Assembly (NCBI GenBank): GCA_023898605.1
Contig: CP060230.1
Span: 241,662-305,661 of the forward strand
From: Candidatus Nomurabacteria bacterium
GTDB lineage: Bacteria > Patescibacteriota > Minisyncoccia > Phycocordibacterales > UBA9973
DNA: 64,000 bases
Direction: 5' to 3'
This document shows, piece by piece, positions 4,685-55,756 of the stretch. A program made the translations under genes and the position numbers. How positions within the stretch are numbered: the stretch's first letter is position 1; every line of letters starts with the position of its first letter. The notes beneath the pieces were generated by a model. That model saw only the letters and a list, made by a program, of their open reading frames with translations. It made no database searches and had not been told where the DNA came from.

Positions 4685-4732
4685 GCAAAATCGTGTGAGG
4701 CAACTCATGAGGGTTCGATTCCCTCCCCGGGC
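4685..4732 (+). repeat. Direct duplicate of the 3' half of tRNA-Leu(CAA) (anticodon loop to acceptor end), with the acceptor changed to ccccgggc
   Basis: About 45 nt identical to 4607-4650, lying 35 nt downstream of the intact tRNA. Confidence 0.7.
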
Positions 4733-4738
4733 ACAAAA

Positions 4739-15364: not shown

Positions 15365-15500
15365 ATAAAAACAATTAGGAGTTCACTATACCAAAATTGA
15401 AGTGATACTTCAAACCGTTTGTGAAGGGGCGAATCCAAGGACTCGCACCTCCCCACCTGCCCGAATAGACGACCTAGTTTAGGCGGGACTGCCCGGGTGA

Positions 15501-15534
15501 TGGAGTAGGTAGACATAGGGGACTTAAAATCCAT
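15501..15534 (+). repeat. Duplicated 5' half of tRNA-Leu(UAA) (acceptor replaced by gcccggg; D-arm and anticodon stem 5' side retained), directly abutting the intact gene
   Basis: gcccgggtgatggagtaggtagacataggggacttaaaatcca versus the gene gctgggatgatggaataggtagacataggggacttaaaatcccc. Confidence 0.7.
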
Positions 15535-17607: not shown

Positions 17608-17755
17608 CCATAGCGAAGCCAAAAGCTGCCTGTCCACCGTAGCCCGTCAGGGCGAAGGTGGAAGCTATGGGCGGATTTGTATCGTTCCATAGCGAAGCCA
17701 AAAGCTGCCTGTCCACCGTAGCCCGTCAGGGCGAAGGTGGAAGCTATGGGCGGAT
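17608..17755. repeat. Two tandem copies (period 79 nt) of a 68-nt hairpin unit whose end equals the first 12 nt of tRNA-Lys (ccgcccatagct)
   Basis: Units 17608-17675 and 17687-17755 are essentially identical. Each holds a nested hairpin (ccacc-gtagcccgtcagggcgaa-ggtgg) between ccatagc...gctatgg arms. Confidence 0.75.
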
Positions 17756-34601: not shown

Positions 34602-34808
34602 AGAGATATTTTAGCATATTGCAAAATCTCATTTTTTTGGTACTATCTCTATACATCTATGAGAAAACACTTACCGATTGAAAGTGCATAGATTCATATT
34701 CCGCGGTACCCGCCAGAATGACTTCATGTCGGGCTGGGCTCAGCTTGCTGAGCGTACCGCGAGATAAAACATATTCCGCGGTAGCTCAGCGGTAGAGCAA
34801 CCGGCTGT

Positions 34809-35426
34809 GAAATACACTTACAAATCTTATATAATCAAAACATGGTTAAAAAAGATTTGAGGAAATATTCCGACCGTCGTGAGTACCTTATAAAGAAAGT
34901 GTCAGAAAGAAGAAAGCTTCTTTTAGACAAAACGATAGAATACAAAGGTGGCAAATGTATTGTTTGTAAACACAACAAATGCAAGCGCGCACTAGTTTTT
35001 CATCACTTGAACCCAAAAGAAAAATCTTTTGGTATTTCTTCAAAAGGTATAACGAGATCGTGGTCTAGTTTACAAAAAGAATTAGACAAATGCGTTCTCT
35101 TGTGTGCAAATTGTCACGCAGAAGTACATGACGGTATAACGCAGCTTCCTATCGAAAGATAGGTTGAAAACGAGGTGAATTCGGGGAAGCCCTTCGTGGG
35201 TAATCCCGAGCCAATCCTTCGCCTAAGGCTTCGGATTGCAAAGCAGGCCCTAAATTATTAGGAAGCATGCCTTGCCGTAGCTTTGTCGAAGGCAGGTGTA
35301 GAGACTATCCTTTATGGAGTAGCCCCAATCAAAAAAATATTTTGATCGGGTCGAAGCGCCTCGCACCCTAGTCATATTGACGGGTGATGATATAGTCCAT
35401 CCCTATTAGAAATTTTAGGATAAGTG
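34809..35426 (+). mobile_element. Group I intron (~618 nt) with an HNH homing-endonuclease ORF in its 5' part and the catalytic core in its 3' part
   Basis: 5' exon ends in U and the intron ends in G (omega-G). Conserved P7 elements: R-like gtagAGACTAtcc (35317-35329) and S-like gatgATATAGTCCatcc (35387-35403) forming GACUA/UAGUC. GC-rich paired segments in an AT-rich genome. Confidence 0.8.
34842..35162 (+). CDS. HNH homing endonuclease (intron-encoded)
   Basis: Motif CIVCKHNKCKRALVFHHLNPKEK...LLCANCHAEVHDG (Cys pairs, HH, N, terminal H). Confidence 0.8.
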   Translation: MVKKDLRKYSDRREYLIKKVSERRKLLLDKTIEYKGGKCIVCKHNKCKRALVFHHLNPKEKSFGISSKGITRSWSSLQKELDKCVLLCANCHAEVHDGITQLPIER

Positions 35427-35465
35427 TAACCGGTGGGTCGCAGGTTCGATCCCTGCCCGCGGAGC

Positions 35466-35527
35466 CCTTCCTCCCTTTGGTCGTCAGGGTCTTTGACCAT
35501 GACAAATATACTGAAGGAAGGCACTGA
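35466..35527 (+). repeat. 62-bp direct repeat, copy 1, beginning 2 nt after the tRNA-Asn 3' end
   Basis: ccttcctccctttggtcgtcagggtctttgaccatgacaaatatactgaaggaaggcactga, 61/62 identical to 36878-36939. Internal inverted repeats ccttcc/ggaagg and tggtc/gacca. Confidence 0.85.
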
Positions 35528-35577
35528 TGATACTGAGAGAGAATACATCGAAGTAGAAGAAGTGCTATGATGTAAAT

Positions 35578-35817
35578 ATGTATCATGTTTATATACTTGA
35601 ATGTAAAGATGGTTCTTTTTATGTCGGATCAACAAATAACCTAGAAAAAAGAATAAAAGAACATAATACTTCTAAAAATGGCGCCCACTATACAAAAATA
35701 CGCAGGCCAGTTATCTTAAAATATTCAGAAACATTTGAAACATTAAAAGAGGCTCGTAAAAGAGAGTCGGAAATAAAGGGCTGGAGAAGAGAAAAGAAAA
35801 TAAACTTATTTAAATAA
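35578..35817 (+). CDS. GIY-YIG nuclease domain protein (79 aa)
   Basis: YILECKDGSFYVGSTNNLEKRIKEHN matches GIY-YIG motifs (GIY..YVG, R, E, N). Confidence 0.75.
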   Translation: MYHVYILECKDGSFYVGSTNNLEKRIKEHNTSKNGAHYTKIRRPVILKYSETFETLKEARKRESEIKGWRREKKINLFK

Positions 35818-36020
35818 AAAATTGCTCTTTTTTCGCATGTTTCAGAACTTTCAAAGATTTCTTTTACTCTGCGAGCGACAGAAAGTACTGTAGCTACAGT
35901 GATTTGATACTCATAATCAGCATTTGTATGCTCTGATAATTCAATTTCCAAAAGTTGTATTTTGTCGTGATACTCTTGATGCTTTTTATTATAGATATCC
36001 TTAGTAATACACAAGTTCAT
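35688..36020 (-). CDS. hypothetical small protein; its 3' part is antisense to the GIY-YIG gene, so its extent is doubtful
   Basis: N-terminal ~65 codons (35825-36020) lie in otherwise unassigned sequence. The rest overlaps 35688-35817 on the opposite strand. Confidence 0.25.
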   Translation of the reverse strand: MNLCITKDIYNKKHQEYHDKIQLLEIELSEHTNADYEYQITVATVLSVARRVKEIFESSETCEKRAIFYLNKFIFFSLLQPFISDSLLRASFNVSNVSEYFKITGLRIFV

Positions 36021-36086
36021 CTTCGTGAGAAAAGTCTATCTTATTCATTACTTTAGTTTACATACCTATTATGATATAATCAACGT

Positions 36087-36257
36087 ATGGCTAAGAAAAC
36101 TCCACAATCACAAAAGGTTACTTTTACAGCAAAGAAGGTCGTCAAAGAGCCGACTGTGGTTTCTTTCAATACAAAACAAGGTCGAGTAAGTTTTACTGCT
36201 CGGGTAAATGTTGAGAAGCCAGTGCAAGTCAGCTTCAAGGCAAAGAATAAAAAATGA
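36087..36257 (+). CDS. small repeat-containing protein (56 aa), putative antitoxin-like partner of the PIN protein
   Basis: Manual translation MAKKTPQSQKVTFTAKKVVKEPTVVSFNTKQGRVSFTARVNVEKPVQVSFKAKNKK. Its TGA stop overlaps the ATG of the next gene (ATGA). TATAAT 8 nt upstream. Confidence 0.45.
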   Translation: MAKKTPQSQKVTFTAKKVVKEPTVVSFNTKQGRVSFTARVNVEKPVQVSFKAKNKK

Positions 36258-36808
36258 AACTCTACCTAGATACAAACGTTATTCGAGATTACCTCGAAAA
36301 TAGAAATACAAACTCTATACAGCTATTGGAGCTTGCCAGACATAAGGGGTGGGAGTGTGTTACGTCTGCCTTTACGATGATGGAAGTTGCGGACCTTGAA
36401 CAAGATAGTATCTTCTTTCAAAAAACGGTCATACGTAAAAAATGGGATGCTGATAAGTTCTTGCGAGAACGCAGACAAAAAGAACTTACAGATAGCGATT
36501 ATCAAGACCTTGAAGAATATCTGGACGTAGTACCTGTACGTCTACCTTTTTTGACTTTCTTCAACTTGAGCGAAGACGGTTGGCAAATAGCACAATATAT
36601 TGCTTCGCACTCTGTTTTATCGGCAGTTGATACCATACACCTAGCAACGGCATACTCTGCGAAAAGCGACATTGTAGTTACAAACGATAGTGGCTTCATA
36701 AAGCACGGAAATAAGATACTGGAAAAGAGTAAGCGAGCAGGACAGATAGCAATCTGTTTGCCAGAGAAGGTTGAAGAAACGGCACAAAAACTAGGCATGA
36801 CTACCTAG
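36254..36808 (+). CDS. PIN-domain protein (VapC-like nuclease fold, 184 aa)
   Basis: LYLDTNVI...D..HLA.A..........VTND acidic-residue pattern of PIN domains. Confidence 0.6.
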   Translation: MKLYLDTNVIRDYLENRNTNSIQLLELARHKGWECVTSAFTMMEVADLEQDSIFFQKTVIRKKWDADKFLRERRQKELTDSDYQDLEEYLDVVPVRLPFLTFFNLSEDGWQIAQYIASHSVLSAVDTIHLATAYSAKSDIVVTNDSGFIKHGNKILEKSKRAGQIAICLPEKVEETAQKLGMTT

Positions 36809-36877
36809 GGGTATGCCAACAAACTTGAGGCCCTGTAACATTTTGCCATTCTATAGTTCGGAATGCGTCCAGCGAGT

Positions 36878-36939
36878 CCTTCCTCCCTTTGGTCGTCAGG
36901 ATCTTTGACCATGACAAATATACTGAAGGAAGGCACTGA
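36878..36939 (+). repeat. 62-bp direct repeat, copy 2
   Basis: See copy 1. Together they delimit a ~1.35-kb cassette carrying the GIY-YIG and small-protein/PIN genes. Confidence 0.85.
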
Positions 36940-37139
36940 CATGTCTTTTGTCTCTTTTGCAAAAATTTAAATGGTACCTCGGAGCCCTTAATTTGACTTT
37001 TATACTATTTTATGTTATCATATAGGTATAGTGGTTCTTTAAGGTATTTGGTTATTTATTGCTGGTTTTGTTGAGTTTTCCCTGCTCCTTACGGGATTAG
37101 AGAGAACTCAATAATTTCTAAAAATTAAATAATCTAGAT

Positions 37140-37412
37140 ATGGGGGGAAAAAATTTTAATAAAAACCATCCTGAAAGATTGGATGATGAAGTTTTTATCA
37201 CAAACGCTACTGATAAGTTTGATTTTGAAGAACACAGATCAAGCTACGATGCTGTTGGCTGGAAAACCAAACGCAGAGGTGATGTATCCTACGACATAGA
37301 TGGTAAACCATTGGGACAAAGATGGCCTGGGTCATTCCCTGTTTTTGCGAAGATTGCTGAAATCGAAAAATCTGAAAACGGGAAAGAAATTCTGAAAAGA
37401 CTTCTTCCTTGA
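37140..37412 (+). CDS. hypothetical protein (90 aa)
   Basis: ORF followed by a terminator at 37435-37466. Confidence 0.45.
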   Translation: MGGKNFNKNHPERLDDEVFITNATDKFDFEEHRSSYDAVGWKTKRRGDVSYDIDGKPLGQRWPGSFPVFAKIAEIEKSENGKEILKRLLP

Positions 37413-37467
37413 CGAAACAATCCCGCCAGTACGGAAACCCGTCGCTGAGCGGGTTTTCTTTTTATTT

Positions 37468-37612
37468 AGTTTGAAGTGCCACTATCGGAAACACCTCAAA
37501 AATCTTAAAAACTTCCAATTCCCTTTTAATAGCATCCCAATTCAGAGTGGTGCCTGTCCGCCTCTGGCGGGAACCTGCCTTTGCCGGCATGCAGGCTTGT
37601 CTACTAGATGGA
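37468..37612 (+). repeat. Structured repeat family, copy A (~145 nt), ending in a GC-rich Y-shaped module at 37552-37595
   Basis: Aligns along its length with copies at 38149, 38936 and 39756. The Y module is gcctg-[ccgcc tct ggcgg]-aa-[cctgcc tttgcc ggcagg]-caggc. Confidence 0.8.
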
Positions 37613-37683
37613 GCTAGCTATTGACACTCAACAGAATATATTATAATGTAATACCAATTACGGTTATTTCACATTGTATTTGA

Positions 37684-38097
37684 TTGGTTTTCAGAGAAGA
37701 TTTTGTCTTTTGTGATAACCAATTAAATATAGAAGATATGAAAAGTTTAATTGATAAAATTAAAGGAACATTTATTTCGGCTCAAGAATTATTTGATACA
37801 TTCAAAGCTTTACAGCTTATGTCATCAGAAGATTTAATTGCCTTTTGGCAAACCATACAATTTACAATAGAGACCGAGGAAGCAAAATTAACATCCGATG
37901 ATAAAAAGAAAATCGGATACATTGAAAAAGTAATTGTGGAAAATATGGTAAATCTTTCCAAAGACGAACCTTCTCTTAAAGAAAAGTTTTATCAGATGGT
38001 TCTTGTAAGGGACAAGAAAAGAGACCCAATAGGAATGAGTAAATTGTTTGGAGCTAATTCAGACTACGAAAGTTCCTTAAGTGAAAAATTAAAATAA
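37684..38097 (+). CDS. hypothetical protein (possibly starting at MKSLIDK, 37738)
   Basis: ORF bounded by repeat A upstream and terminator plus repeat B downstream. Confidence 0.45.
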   Translation: MVFREDFVFCDNQLNIEDMKSLIDKIKGTFISAQELFDTFKALQLMSSEDLIAFWQTIQFTIETEEAKLTSDDKKKIGYIEKVIVENMVNLSKDEPSLKEKFYQMVLVRDKKRDPIGMSKLFGANSDYESSLSEKLK

Positions 38098-38148
38098 ATC
38101 CACTTTGTGGTAGAAACTTCTACCGCTTGGTGGATTTTTCTTTTTATT

Positions 38149-38255
38149 AGTTCTGAAGTGCCACCATCGGAAACATCTCAAAAATCTTAGAAAACTCTAA
38201 CTCTTTTTAATAGCAACCCGATTCAGGGTTCTGAACTCGTCCACTAGAGGAAGCC
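38149..38255 (+). repeat. Structured repeat family, copy B (5' two-thirds only; the GC-rich Y module is replaced by ggttctgaactcgtccactagagg)
   Basis: Over 80% identity to copy A across the first ~85 nt. Confidence 0.7.
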
Positions 38256-38354
38256 ATTAAAATCACTTTGTAAAACGAGGTGATTTTTTGATACCCAAAT
38301 AGGGTTCAGAACTTTTATAATAAAAAGAACACTTCTTGCGAAATGTTCTTATTA

Positions 38355-38900
38355 CTAATTTTTCAAATCACTACTAAGGTTGCTAGCAAAACGCCTTATG
38401 GCAGGTATTACATCGTGTCCAGTTAGATGTCGTAGTAGGTATAAAAAGTTTTGCGTATCTTTGTTGTTATCACAAAAACTTTCCAAACCATTTACAAGAG
38501 CATCTACTTTACGCGAAGTATCCCAAGCAGATAAGTTTACTTCTTTTATATCAACCGTAAGTGAAGGCATTAAAGTTTCAATACTCGCTATGTCTTCATA
38601 CTTTCTAATGAGCCTCTCAACACTGTTAAGATTTTCATCAGTGGCGGGCATTTTCAAAGATTGTAGATACATCCAACAAGTAATTTGCCAAAAAAGTTCT
38701 TTAATAAAGTTCTCAGAGTATTCGTACTCTTCGGGTGCTTCAACCGAACTTTTATAGAAAAGGTTTTCTTGTTTTCGTAATGCAAACAACCATTTTACAA
38801 ACTGTTCTGTAGATGTAACTACTGAAGTGTCTGTACCAAGTAGTAATTTTCGTATTTTTTCTCTCATAGAACAATGATTTATTAAAACATAATATATCAT
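38355..38900 (-). CDS. hypothetical protein (possible start at MREKIRK, 38867)
   Basis: ORF between repeat copies B and C. Confidence 0.45.
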   Translation of the reverse strand: MIYYVLINHCSMREKIRKLLLGTDTSVVTSTEQFVKWLFALRKQENLFYKSSVEAPEEYEYSENFIKELFWQITCWMYLQSLKMPATDENLNSVERLIRKYEDIASIETLMPSLTVDIKEVNLSAWDTSRKVDALVNGLESFCDNNKDTQNFLYLLRHLTGHDVIPAIRRFASNLSSDLKN

Positions 38901-38935
38901 AAATTATGTATTTGTAAATAGGTATATAAGTTGCG

Positions 38936-39083
38936 AGTTCTGAAGTGTTACCACCGGAACCACCTCAAAAATCTTAAAAATTCCAATTCCCTTTTAATTG
39001 CAGTCCAATTCAGAGTGGCGCCTGTCCGCCTCTGGCGGGAACCTGCCTTTGCCGGCAGGCAGGCTTGTACAACAGAGGGAGCC
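38936..39083 (+). repeat. Structured repeat family, copy C (full length; Y module at 39020-39064)
   Basis: Near-identical to copy A, including the Y module and the downstream gtacaacagagggag tail. Confidence 0.8.
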
Positions 39084-39218
39084 AAAAAAATATTCTATTT
39101 CTGCTATAATGTACTTACACAAGAATCCTTGCACAATTGTATAAGTAGGTGTATAATATGTCTATCACTATGAAAGAGACCCTTGTGTGGATTCGTCCAC
39201 ATTGGGGGCTTTTTCTTT

Positions 39219-39698
39219 TCAGGCTCTGGTAGAAAATTTATGGTACAAATCGTTTAGAAAAGTGATTTCTATATTCTTGTTTCGTATTAAAATAGAACAT
39301 TTATTTTCATCTGGAGACAAAACTCCGATGATAGCATTATTGTCTTTAAGAAATTCTACAAGACATCCAAAATCTCCGTCTCCTGTAATTAAAATACATT
39401 TATCAAAAGATTTAGTGTAGAAATCAGAGACCGTTTTCAGTACTAATTCTGCATCACAATTCCCTTTGATTTTCTCTCCTACTGACACCGTTTGTTTAAA
39501 GACCAAAATATAACCACAGCTTTGTAAATGTTCATAGAATTTAACTCTTTCTGGTACCAAGCCGATGAAAAGATAAACATTGCTAGCATTATATTTCTGT
39601 CTAAGCCATCCCCTCAATTTCTTGTAATCAAGATTAAAACCAAGTTCTTTAGCAGAGCGGTATAAATTATTACCATCTATATAAATATTGGTTTTCAT
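39219..39698 (-). CDS. NYN-domain (LabA/Zc3h12a-like PIN-fold) putative RNase
   Basis: IYIDGNNLYRSAKELG...GNCDAELVL...LITGDGDFGCLVEFL: NYN acidic-residue pattern. Confidence 0.6.
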   Translation of the reverse strand: MKTNIYIDGNNLYRSAKELGFNLDYKKLRGWLRQKYNASNVYLFIGLVPERVKFYEHLQSCGYILVFKQTVSVGEKIKGNCDAELVLKTVSDFYTKSFDKCILITGDGDFGCLVEFLKDNNAIIGVLSPDENKCSILIRNKNIEITFLNDLYHKFSTRA

Positions 39699-39755
39699 AA
39701 TTTATATAATACCACTTATATATTATTTTCTAAAACCACTTTCGAATATACTCTC

Positions 39756-39817
39756 GCGCCTGTCCGCCTCTGGCGGGAACCTGCCTTTGTCGGCAGGCAG
39801 GCTTGTCCAGTGGAAAG
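39756..39817 (+). repeat. Structured repeat family, copy D (Y module plus tail only)
   Basis: gcgcctgtccgcctctggcgggaacctgcctttgtcggcaggcaggcttgtccagtgg. Confidence 0.75.
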
Positions 39818-39980
39818 ATTTTAAAAATTAAAAATAGACAAAAAATATGCTATTATAAAAATAAGGTTGGACTTATGTACCGTAAAATAAAGCCAATAGT
39901 ACCAAGGTATCTACTGGACCCCTCAACCCGTCGCGCCGCAAGGCTACTAACGACGGGTTTTCTTCTGCTATAATACCCTC

Positions 39981-43286: not shown

Positions 43287-43382
43287 TTATCTTTTCTTTG
43301 ACGCCTTTTTTGTTGCCTTTTTAGTTGCTTTTTTAGCTGCCTTCTTTGGAGCCTTTTTTGCAACTTTCTTCTTTGCTGCCAT
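43287..43382 (-). CDS. Lys/Ala-rich basic mini-protein (31 aa; histone H1-like), paralog of 55518-55658
   Basis: Manual translation MAAKKKVAKKAPKKAAKKATKKATKKASKKR, with a terminator just downstream (43240-43272). The ORF-track entry 43259-43465 is in another frame. Confidence 0.5.
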   Translation of the reverse strand: MAAKKKVAKKAPKKAAKKATKKATKKASKKR

Positions 43383-43589
43383 AAAAATATAGAATGAATT
43401 TTATATAAAAATTCGACCCGTGAAGGTCCTATATGGCTCTCATCGATTCCACTAGGTGTCATCACTCACTGAGAATTGTAGCAAGCCTATTAACTCTAGC
43501 AATATGTTTTTGAAACAAGAGGCTGTGGATTAAATCAAAATAAATTAATGATTGACAAAAGACTCGTATTGATTTAATCTCTTTGGAAA

Positions 43590-55517: not shown

Positions 55518-55658
55518 ATGGCAGCAAAGAAGAAAGTGGCAAGAAAAGCTTCTAAGAAGAGAGCAGCTCCAAAGAAGAGAACTGCAAAAAAAGCTTCTAA
55601 GAAGAGAGCAGCTCCAAAGAAGAGAGCAGCTAAAAAAACTTCTAAAAGAAGAAAGTAA
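55518..55658 (+). CDS. Lys/Ala-rich basic mini-protein (46 aa; histone H1-like), paralog of 43287-43382
   Basis: Manual translation MAAKKKVARKASKKRAAPKKRTAKKASKKRAAPKKRAAKKTSKRRK. Two hairpin terminators follow (55690-55715, 55716-55747). Confidence 0.5.
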   Translation: MAAKKKVARKASKKRAAPKKRTAKKASKKRAAPKKRAAKKTSKRRK

Positions 55659-55756
55659 AGACCACAAAAAAACGAAAGCCTTCTCCTATCAAGAGGGTTT
55701 TTGTTTTGGCAAAAGAAAAACCTCTGCCATAAGCAGAGGTTTTTCATATTGATTGC

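Follow-up and report, generated by a model that had tools for sequence, protein, structure and literature searches.

A strain-variable cassette bounded by direct repeats beside an intron-split tRNA-Asn gene in a tRNA-linked island of Candidatus Nomurabacteria

In the ~619-kb genome of a Candidatus Nomurabacteria bacterium (Patescibacteriota), a small gene cassette lies directly behind the tRNA-Asn gene, between two near-identical direct repeats. In the present study, we analyzed this cassette and its surroundings within a 64-kb stretch of contig CP060230.1 (hereafter, the window, to which all coordinates refer unless a contig is named) and compared it with related strains and with other genomes of the candidate phyla radiation (CPR). 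The two repeats, R1 (35462-35527, plus strand) and R2 (36874-36939, plus strand), are 66 nt long, are identical at 64 of the 66 positions, and start 1412 bp apart; R denotes either copy. R1 starts at the 3' end of the tRNA, and R2 differs from it by a T for a C and an A for a G. An earlier reading of the sequence alone (the original prediction) had described repeats of 62 nt that bracket the cassette, contain inverted repeats, and begin 2 nt past the tRNA discriminator. This description was confirmed: the 62-nt cores (35466-35527 and 36878-36939) match at 61 positions, the inverted repeats CCTTCC/GGAAGG and GGTC/GACC are present inside R, and the first core begins 2 nt past the discriminator G at 35464. 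On the minus strand, R forms a stable fold (z = -3.8), and both substitutions between R1 and R2 preserve the pairing there. The 1.35-kb cassette (GC content 0.366, versus 0.373 for the window) is a mosaic of a GIY-YIG nuclease gene, a remnant of a recombinase gene, and a module of a small-protein gene and a PIN-domain gene. No intact mobility gene was found inside it, but it does contain the recombinase remnant and the GIY-YIG nuclease. The 65 nt between the stop codon of the PIN gene and R2 (36809-36873, plus strand) have no homolog in any fetched locus.

Contigs of other strains of the same species (Candidatus Nomurabacteria metagenome-assembled genome) were retrieved from public assemblies by means of the exact proteins of the flanking genes. 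Three runs yielded Logan contigs (L001-L003) that match the filled allele, with the cassette and two R, at 100% identity; L001 crosses R2 into the right flank, and L002 and L003 begin at R1 or inside the cassette and extend to R2. The empty allele, with one R, was found in L004/L014, L006/L016, L015, and L017, where the intron-containing tRNA-Asn gene is followed by a single R and then by the right flank (CATGTCTTTTG...), and exactly 1412 bp are absent. The contigs with the empty allele, which belong to two further sample series (ERZ273093xx and WANG18), are 99.5-99.9% identical to the window upstream of the locus. Thus, the search for an empty site, suggested by the original prediction, was successful in at least four assemblies of ~99%-identical strains. 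Since empty contigs exist together with independently obtained filled contigs, we regard the cassette as a true strain polymorphism and not as an assembly artefact. The single R of the empty site carries the bases of R1, C at 35465 and G at 35489, where R2 has T and A; thus, any crossover between the repeats would have to lie within the last 38 nt of the repeat. The same strains differ by a second indel 700 bp further on, where another repeat is present in three copies in the window and in one copy in L004. According to single nucleotide polymorphisms (SNPs), the strains are mosaics produced by recombination; around the locus, one empty strain clusters with the filled strain to the exclusion of another empty strain.

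The tRNA-Asn(GTT) gene was read from the sequence. Its 5' exon (34775-34808, plus strand) ends with ...CTGT in the anticodon loop, and its 3' exon (35427-35464, plus strand) supplies the T-arm and the acceptor strand. They are separated by a group I intron of 618 nt (34809-35426, plus strand; Rfam RF00028, 62.1 bits against a gathering score of 50, E = 1e-14), which contains an open reading frame (ORF) with a weak Pfam match to HNH endonucleases (34842-35162). The junctions (CTGT^ and ...GTG^TAA, with ^ marking the boundary here and below) have U as the last base of the 5' exon and G as the last base of the intron. Because the intron splits the gene, neither ARAGORN nor the Rfam tRNA model detected tRNA-Asn in the window. 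The corresponding alleles of two 99%-identical strains (L008 and L013) have no intron and join the exons as CTGT^TAACCGG, and ARAGORN reports tRNA-Asn(GTT) in both. The anticodon loop of tRNA-Asn in this species therefore contains a group I intron with an HNH ORF that is variable among 99%-identical strains, and the tRNA 3' end that the original prediction placed beside the first repeat is real, although the gene is split. The same HNH ORF (58-65% identical by tblastn) was found beside a recombinase gene or gene fragment in seven other CPR loci. ARAGORN found no tRNA within 2.5 kb at these seven loci, and an intron-split tRNA-Asn gene is thus probable there as well. Ten nucleotides ahead of the tRNA-Asn gene of the window lies a very stable Y-shaped structure (34697-34766; -34.8 kcal/mol, z = -4.8), whose closing stem copies the 5' strand of the tRNA-Asn acceptor (ATTCCGCGGTA...GTACCGCGAG). 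Comparable duplications of a tRNA 5' end were observed ahead of tRNA-Gln in L120 and L205.

The original prediction noted a possible small antisense ORF in the cassette and stated that no integrase was present. The sequence of this ORF (35688-36020, minus strand) is real, but it was misread, as about 62 of its codons are the remnant of a large serine recombinase gene (35818-36008, minus strand), which corresponds to approximately codons 405-468 of ~505 (ITKDIY...EKRA) and is truncated at both ends. The remnant has 51 protein homologs (E from 1e-27 to 1e-9) and aligns with the C-terminal tail of a family of ~505 amino acids; a hidden Markov model (HMM) of the family C-terminus aligns it only up to EKRA(IF). 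At the DNA level, homology to about 100 loci extends from 35807/35818 to 36008/36012, and the best match is 92% identical (L062). The full-length relatives carry the Resolvase, Recombinase, and Zn_ribbon_recom domains, and are thus large serine recombinases. The 5' part of the gene and the N-terminal domains were found nowhere in the window. It is therefore correct that the window has no intact integrase, but a trace of one is present.

The upstream end of the remnant (36009-36014, minus strand; ttGtGt^ATTACTAAGGA), where homology to the recombinase stops and unrelated DNA starts, is a recurrent junction. With the tail of the recombinase as the query, 159 CPR loci were obtained from GTDB species representatives and JGI metagenomes, of which 94 have a full-length gene and 49 have a C-terminal fragment of ~100 amino acids; the family was not found in IMG/VR viral contigs. 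All 43 fragments that could be scored break at the same nucleotide, GNGR^ATTACTAAGGA (GNGR^ATTACT). Their identity to the full-length consensus is ~1.0 from ATTACTAAGGA onward and collapses one base upstream, where a T is present in 98% of the full-length genes versus 9% of the fragments. The fragments keep a G at -2 (95%) and at -4 (86%), and their upstream flanks are unrelated to one another. The remnant in the window, with ttGtGt^ATTACTAAGGAT at 36008/36009, has this same break-point. The junction lies in a local palindrome (AGTA-T-TACT), and the sequence pattern suggests that a second recombination site is present inside the recombinase ORF.

The other end of the recombinase gene also has a fixed position. 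At about 80 loci (60 full-length genes and 19 fragments), the ORF ends with ...AAC TGG CTC and is directly followed by the reverse complement of a tRNA, so that the two genes lie tail to tail; in 58 of 65 ARAGORN calls this tRNA is tRNA-Asn, and in the others it is tRNA-Gln, tRNA-His, or tRNA-Ala. At the remaining loci, the ORF continues into a "native tail", WLxxV(D/E)(D/E)(V/F)RT..., whose DNA (GTTCGAAC) mimics the T-loop of a tRNA. The native tail may be an attP site that overlaps the 3' end of the gene, with the crossover at the GAGCCA end of the tRNA. In the species of the window, 99%-identical strains diverge exactly after GCGGAGCC at the tRNA end: in L008 the canonical recombinase gene 3' end follows (reverse complement, RSPFNLVLELATTPNWLR), in L013 something else, and in the window and L004 R. 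Both full-length elements examined (L055 and L132) have restriction-modification (R-M) genes immediately upstream of the recombinase gene. Blast searches with the flank at the other side and motif searches upstream of the integrase gene gave no consistent site for the second end of intact elements within 5-9 kb, and literature searches yielded nothing relevant on CPR serine integrases. One further arrangement was observed in L090 (5996-10581), which is syntenic with the window (DUF167 and HPF genes beside tRNA-Asn). There, 4.3 kb of cargo is enclosed by direct repeats, namely two recombinase fragments of 300 nt with 86% identity, of which the distal one carries the native tail and the proximal one is fused to the tRNA.

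Downstream of the cassette, an array of repeat units of ~100-150 nt with ORF cassettes between them extends over 37451-39820 (plus strand; the clearest units are 37451-37614, 38125-38256, and 38935-39085). The units are reverse copies of the native tail of the recombinase (homology at 37451-37548, 38125-38256, and 38935-39016), and are 79-88% identical to the segments 291-424 nt after the ITKD site in L093, L096, and L097. The copies that reach 37614 and 39085 end in GAGCYA, after which unrelated DNA follows, and are thus scars of the attR type. L004 lacks 37615-38935, which holds two ORF cassettes (137 and 181 amino acids). Given these serial scars and the remnants, we interpret 35466-39820 as an accretion array of decayed elements. 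Furthermore, the remnant in the cassette and the placement of its family against tRNA-Asn in ~80 CPR loci indicate that the locus is a decayed integrative island. One of the two alternatives of the original prediction, a decayed integrative element, is thus right for the locus as a whole.

Between the cassette and this array, the right flank shared by the filled and empty alleles contains a promoter (TTGACT-17-TATCAT) and the 5' leader (36993-37139, plus strand) of a gene for 90 amino acids (37140-37412). The leader is structured, with the stem GTTGAGTT...AACTCAAT, and has no Rfam match; it is 77-80% identical to sequences in L082, L093, L097, and L103, where it stands ahead of unrelated genes. 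It is directly preceded by CGGAGCCCTT (36980-36989, plus strand), which repeats the 3' end of tRNA-Asn together with 4 further nt and occurs twice in the window against 0.05 copies expected; in L093 the promoter and leader directly follow tRNA-Asn. CGGAGCCCTT at 36980 is possibly an old att core. As an attR of the serine integrase it is no more than a possibility, since the bases before it, in contrast to those of the scars in 37451-39085, do not resemble the family tail.

The GIY-YIG gene (35578-35817, plus strand) encodes a protein of 79 amino acids of the UPF0213 type (Pfam PF01541, E = 1e-19), so that this assignment of the original prediction stands. The catalytic domain spans residues 1-76, no DNA-binding domain is appended, and the closest relatives of solved structure (PDB 1ywl and 1zg2) are both UPF0213 proteins. 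More than 3355 homologs were found, the best 120 of which are 74-85% identical; weak profile matches to homing and intron endonucleases were also obtained. In all four contexts analyzed, a tRNA gene on the same strand lies just upstream of the GIY-YIG gene, at 80 nt in L120 (tRNA-Gln-CUG), 121 nt in L109 (tRNA-Gln-UUG), ~138 nt in L205 (tRNA-Gln-CUG), and 114 nt in the window (tRNA-Asn), i.e., at 80-138 nt. Literature searches gave nothing relevant on tRNA-linked GIY-YIG genes, and we know of no function of the UPF0213 family. Stand-alone GIY-YIG proteins of the UPF0213/YhbQ type (1ywl and 1zg2) resemble the present protein in having ~80-100 amino acids and the catalytic domain only; the difference here is the position of the gene, right after a tRNA and behind a conserved hairpin leader. 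In L119 (2586-3246), two GIY-YIG genes are in tandem, one behind a tRNA-like fragment and one behind tRNA-Gln.

R can be aligned with the leaders that separate the tRNA from the GIY-YIG gene in L120, L205, and L109. From the tRNA end onward, all four share a pyrimidine tract, C[C/T][C/T]TTC..., then TCAG(G/A)G and a variable inner hairpin; next come an AU-rich patch and a purine tract pairing with the beginning of the leader, and C(A/T)C(T/C)GA stands last. When the four sequences are aligned manually, with the tRNA end and CAC as anchors, 85% of the outer stem is paired, versus 45-55% after sliding of the partner strand, and 5 of its 10 pairs are changed on both sides. This covariation is suggestive of a conserved structure and a common origin of the four leaders. 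There is no promoter-like site between tRNA-Asn and the GIY-YIG gene, and this gene is probably co-transcribed with the tRNA. R1 thus is the hairpin that normally opens the leader of the GIY-YIG gene in the tRNA trailer, and R2, which has no GIY-YIG gene or anything else canonical behind it, is an extra copy.

The third component of the cassette consists of a gene for a Lys-rich protein of 56 amino acids with four V(S/T)F repeats (36087-36257, plus strand) and a gene for a PIN-domain protein of 184 amino acids (36254-36808, plus strand; Pfam PIN, E = 4e-9, above the cut-off). As the original prediction stated, the stop codon of the former overlaps the start codon of the latter (ATGA). In the PIN family of 18 proteins, D6, E44, D126, and D145 are invariant, and wherever the context of a homolog was examined, a partner 54-70% identical to the 56-residue protein was found upstream, as a called gene or by tblastn. 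Four of the five contexts have a type III or type IIG (MmeI-type) R-M system next to the PIN homolog, and in L028 the pair is located in the same DUF167-HPF-fmt-def neighborhood as in the window. In other genomes the homologs of the module occur without R and without the GIY-YIG gene, and DNA homology to L018 stops at 36814. Thus, the two genes form a conserved module, for which a toxin-antitoxin role may be proposed. It resembles VapBC type II toxin-antitoxin systems in the small upstream gene that overlaps the PIN gene by ATGA, the invariant acidic tetrad, and the movement among defence-island contexts; it differs in the length of the PIN protein (184 amino acids) and in its partner, which belongs to no known antitoxin family. 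The comparison with toxin-antitoxin models suggested by the original prediction gave no assignment: the 56-residue protein has no match in Pfam, PHROGs, PADLOC, or NCBIfam and no recognizable DNA-binding fold or family of antitoxins, and for the pair, TIGR00305 gives 18.6 bits against a cut-off of 29, PADLOC gives no match, and every curated model of toxin-antitoxin or defence systems stays below its threshold. In a Moranbacteria genome (L020, 3492-4436), the module of the small-protein gene and the PIN gene is flanked by 37-nt hairpin repeats that are 81% identical.

The repeat itself appears to be confined to this locus. The core of R occurs twice in the 64 kb at up to three mismatches, against none expected from 100 shuffles, and no further R was found in ~200 CPR loci, GTDB species representatives, JGI metagenomes, or IMG/VR; the original prediction had proposed to look for it in other CPR genomes and metagenome bins. 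An exact 20-nt match in L096 has dissimilar flanks and was taken as chance. The concern that R is a common intergenic or terminator motif was not borne out, as R is unique in the window, absent from all the collections scanned, not followed by a U-tract, and not among the terminator-like sites. We also considered whether R derives from coding sequence for the recombinase C-terminus that has since diverged; the two share a reading frame that runs into the tRNA (the frame of the canonical ...WLRGQGSNL), but the HMM of the family C-terminus gives negative scores and blastn matches the tRNA part only. An integron-like attC was rejected by inspection: there are no GTTRRRY/RYYYAAC cores, the two copies are alike instead of forming a differing array, and no intI is present. 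Likewise, the sequence immediately before R2 (GTTCGGAATGCGTCCAGCGAG) was examined as a pseudo-tRNA 3' end, but it agrees at ~13 of 29 positions and has no Rfam match, and was not considered significant.

The explanation that we favor overall, and regard as somewhat more likely than not, combines an accretion array of decayed elements, a mosaic cassette, and recombination between the two R. In this explanation, the region just downstream of tRNA-Asn would consist of decayed elements of a CPR family whose large serine recombinase inserts them at the 3' end of tRNA-Asn, and the slot nearest to the tRNA would hold the 1.35-kb mosaic, i.e., the GIY-YIG gene with its leader, the doubly truncated recombinase remnant, and the PIN module resembling a toxin-antitoxin system. 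Homology-driven recombination between R1 and R2 would delete the segment, and the resulting 1412-bp circle could be inserted again through the same homology, so that neither a recombinase encoded by the cassette nor one specific for R would be needed. Because R is unique, R1 is in its native place, and no enzyme for R is in sight, recombination between the two R is the most economical account. It is the likeliest mechanism judging from the sequences, and the event may have been an insertion or a deletion. The original prediction regarded the repeats as att-like scars of site-specific integration. It is right that direct repeats flank the cassette and that the empty site has a single copy. However, the junctions of the recombinase family, at the GAGCCA end of the tRNA and inside its ORF, map outside R, and R is not reused elsewhere; the 66-bp repeats are thus not att scars of this family, nor of any other integrase that could be identified. 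The cassette is a repeat-bounded indel in a tRNA-linked island and seems not to be itself a working mobile element.

Several points weigh against this explanation. The recombination pathway was deduced from the alleles and not seen directly. The search of the organism's own DNA for copies of R covered 64 kb of the ~619-kb genome. The explanation does not account for the origin of R2, and an R without a GIY-YIG gene behind it, as found at R2 and at the empty sites, is not canonical. The covariation in the leader, which is suggestive, rests on four sequences and an alignment anchored by hand. Finally, the local grouping of SNPs slightly favors insertion or recurrent deletion, although the strains are mosaic.

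A more far-reaching possibility, which we put forward as tentative and rather doubtful when all its parts are taken jointly, is that the cassette occupies a docking slot of an undescribed CPR-wide system. If so, the serine recombinase would integrate at the CCA end of tRNA-Asn, using as attP a mimic of the tRNA in the tail of its own gene, and would also act at the palindromic site in its own ORF (GAGT^ATTACTAAGGA, approximately codon 405). A conserved landing pad, made up of tRNA-Asn and the final 300 nt of the gene, would then remain in the chromosome, and the 5' part of the gene would come and go together with the R-M cargo, the gene being split or re-formed by excision and integration. The GIY-YIG unit in the tRNA trailer would be a second selfish layer that competes for the same tRNA end.

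Less probable is the other alternative of the original prediction, that the cassette is a small integrative unit in its own right, a 1412-bp circle with one R that is moved by a recombinase encoded elsewhere into an R-containing attB beside tRNA-Asn. Such a unit would account for the nucleotide-precise boundaries and the one copy of R at the empty site; also in its favor are the structure of R, an inverted repeat whose substitutions keep the pairing on the minus strand, and the local SNPs, which nest the filled strain within the variation among the empty strains. However, no other R and no other R-flanked cassette was found in the collections scanned, and R is already accounted for as the leader hairpin of the GIY-YIG gene. 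Furthermore, the sole trace of a recombinase belongs to a family with its junctions elsewhere, and 66 bp of identity is unlike what serine recombinases leave. We therefore judge this possibility to be unlikely.

Equally improbable in our view is homing by the GIY-YIG nuclease, in which the enzyme cuts tRNA trailers without its gene and repair from the filled allele copies the gene and its neighbors. The occurrence of the gene directly after different tRNAs (Asn, Gln-CUG, and Gln-UUG) in all four contexts, the extreme abundance of the family in CPR, and the weak profile matches mentioned above would agree with homing, as would the tandem copies and the comparison of L119 with L120, where the upstream genes are common and the GIY-YIG gene lies at the point where the downstream gene content switches. 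On the other hand, the idea of the original prediction that the gene may encode a free-standing homing endonuclease is not supported by a UPF0213 protein of 79 residues, which consists of the catalytic domain only and has no DNA-binding module, so that the architecture of the known ones (Seg or I-TevI-like) is absent. Identity of 74-85% across many lineages suggests a conserved cellular role and not a decaying selfish gene, and in the single multi-sample case examined (P0091) the context of the gene was fixed. In addition, homing neither requires nor makes 66-bp direct repeats. As for an assembly artefact, in which the cassette was misplaced between two repeat copies, L002 does start and end within the repeats with a 30-nt overlap, as is typical of a graph loop, but L001 spans R2 into the right flank, L002 and L003 match the filled allele up to R2 at 100% identity, three runs agree, and the empty allele comes from different studies, so that this explanation is hardly credible.

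The pattern seen at this locus has a published precedent. Insertions with long target duplication, described by Nobusato, Kobayashi, and colleagues (Furuta et al. 2010, PMC2853133), have near-identical flanking direct repeats of more than 30 bp, the repeat being single-copy in a close relative and otherwise unique in the genome, with no mobility genes in the insert; some of them adjoin tRNA genes, and the cargo is of the selfish or defence type, namely R-M systems (PMC2853133). The present cassette is alike in its 66-bp repeats (64/66), their single copy in relatives, the adjacent tRNA, and the defence-type cargo, and its repeat is unique in the window. It differs in that the cargo is a PIN pair, a GIY-YIG gene, and a recombinase remnant, and that the duplicated target is a leader hairpin of functional appearance. 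With tRNA-linked islands that grow by tandem accretion, the locus shares an integrase gene at the tRNA 3' end, divergence of strains at this end, and serial scars. Tyrosine integrases are the usual enzymes of tRNA-targeting islands; here the enzyme is a large serine recombinase, its ORF runs antisense into the tRNA, the array is compact (~4.4 kb), and no intact integrase is present in the window. In the archaeal integrase genes of the SSV1 type, attP lies within the int ORF. The CPR family is similar in that the putative att overlaps the integrase coding sequence and mimics the 3' part of a tRNA, that integration would alter the end of the gene, and that gene fragments with fixed break-points persist in genomes. 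It differs in being bacterial, in being a serine and not a tyrosine recombinase, and in having two fixed points (the CCA end and approximately codon 405).

Repeated sequences were also observed elsewhere in the window. Partial copies of tRNA-Leu at 4686-4737 and 15490-15532 (3' half, 96%; 5' half, 91%) each lie beside the intact gene and may be further integration scars. At 17608-17755, two perfect 69-nt copies, 79 nt apart from start to start, lie directly beside tRNA-Lys. Three tandem 45-nt units at 55525-55659 encode a Lys/Ala-rich repeat, and a related copy in inverted orientation (43336-43391) opens another ORF at a distance of 12 kb.

The cassette is a clean example, resolved to the nucleotide, of the gain or loss of defence-type genes in the tiny genomes of CPR bacteria. 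It points to gene turnover through recombination of short duplicated segments in a tRNA hotspot, with no need for a resident mobility enzyme. The wider regularity seems to be a family of serine integrases that targets tRNA-Asn across Patescibacteria, with a gene that overlaps its own att and with R-M cargo. The cassette itself is of a known kind; the fixed internal junction and the layout of tRNA, leader, and GIY-YIG gene are less expected. The former, a nucleotide-precise break-point inside the recombinase gene in more than 40 independent loci, is a by-product of this analysis that can be tested. The latter, a fixed arrangement of a tRNA, a hairpin leader, and a UPF0213 GIY-YIG gene, may give a handle on the function or the expression of an abundant uncharacterized family.

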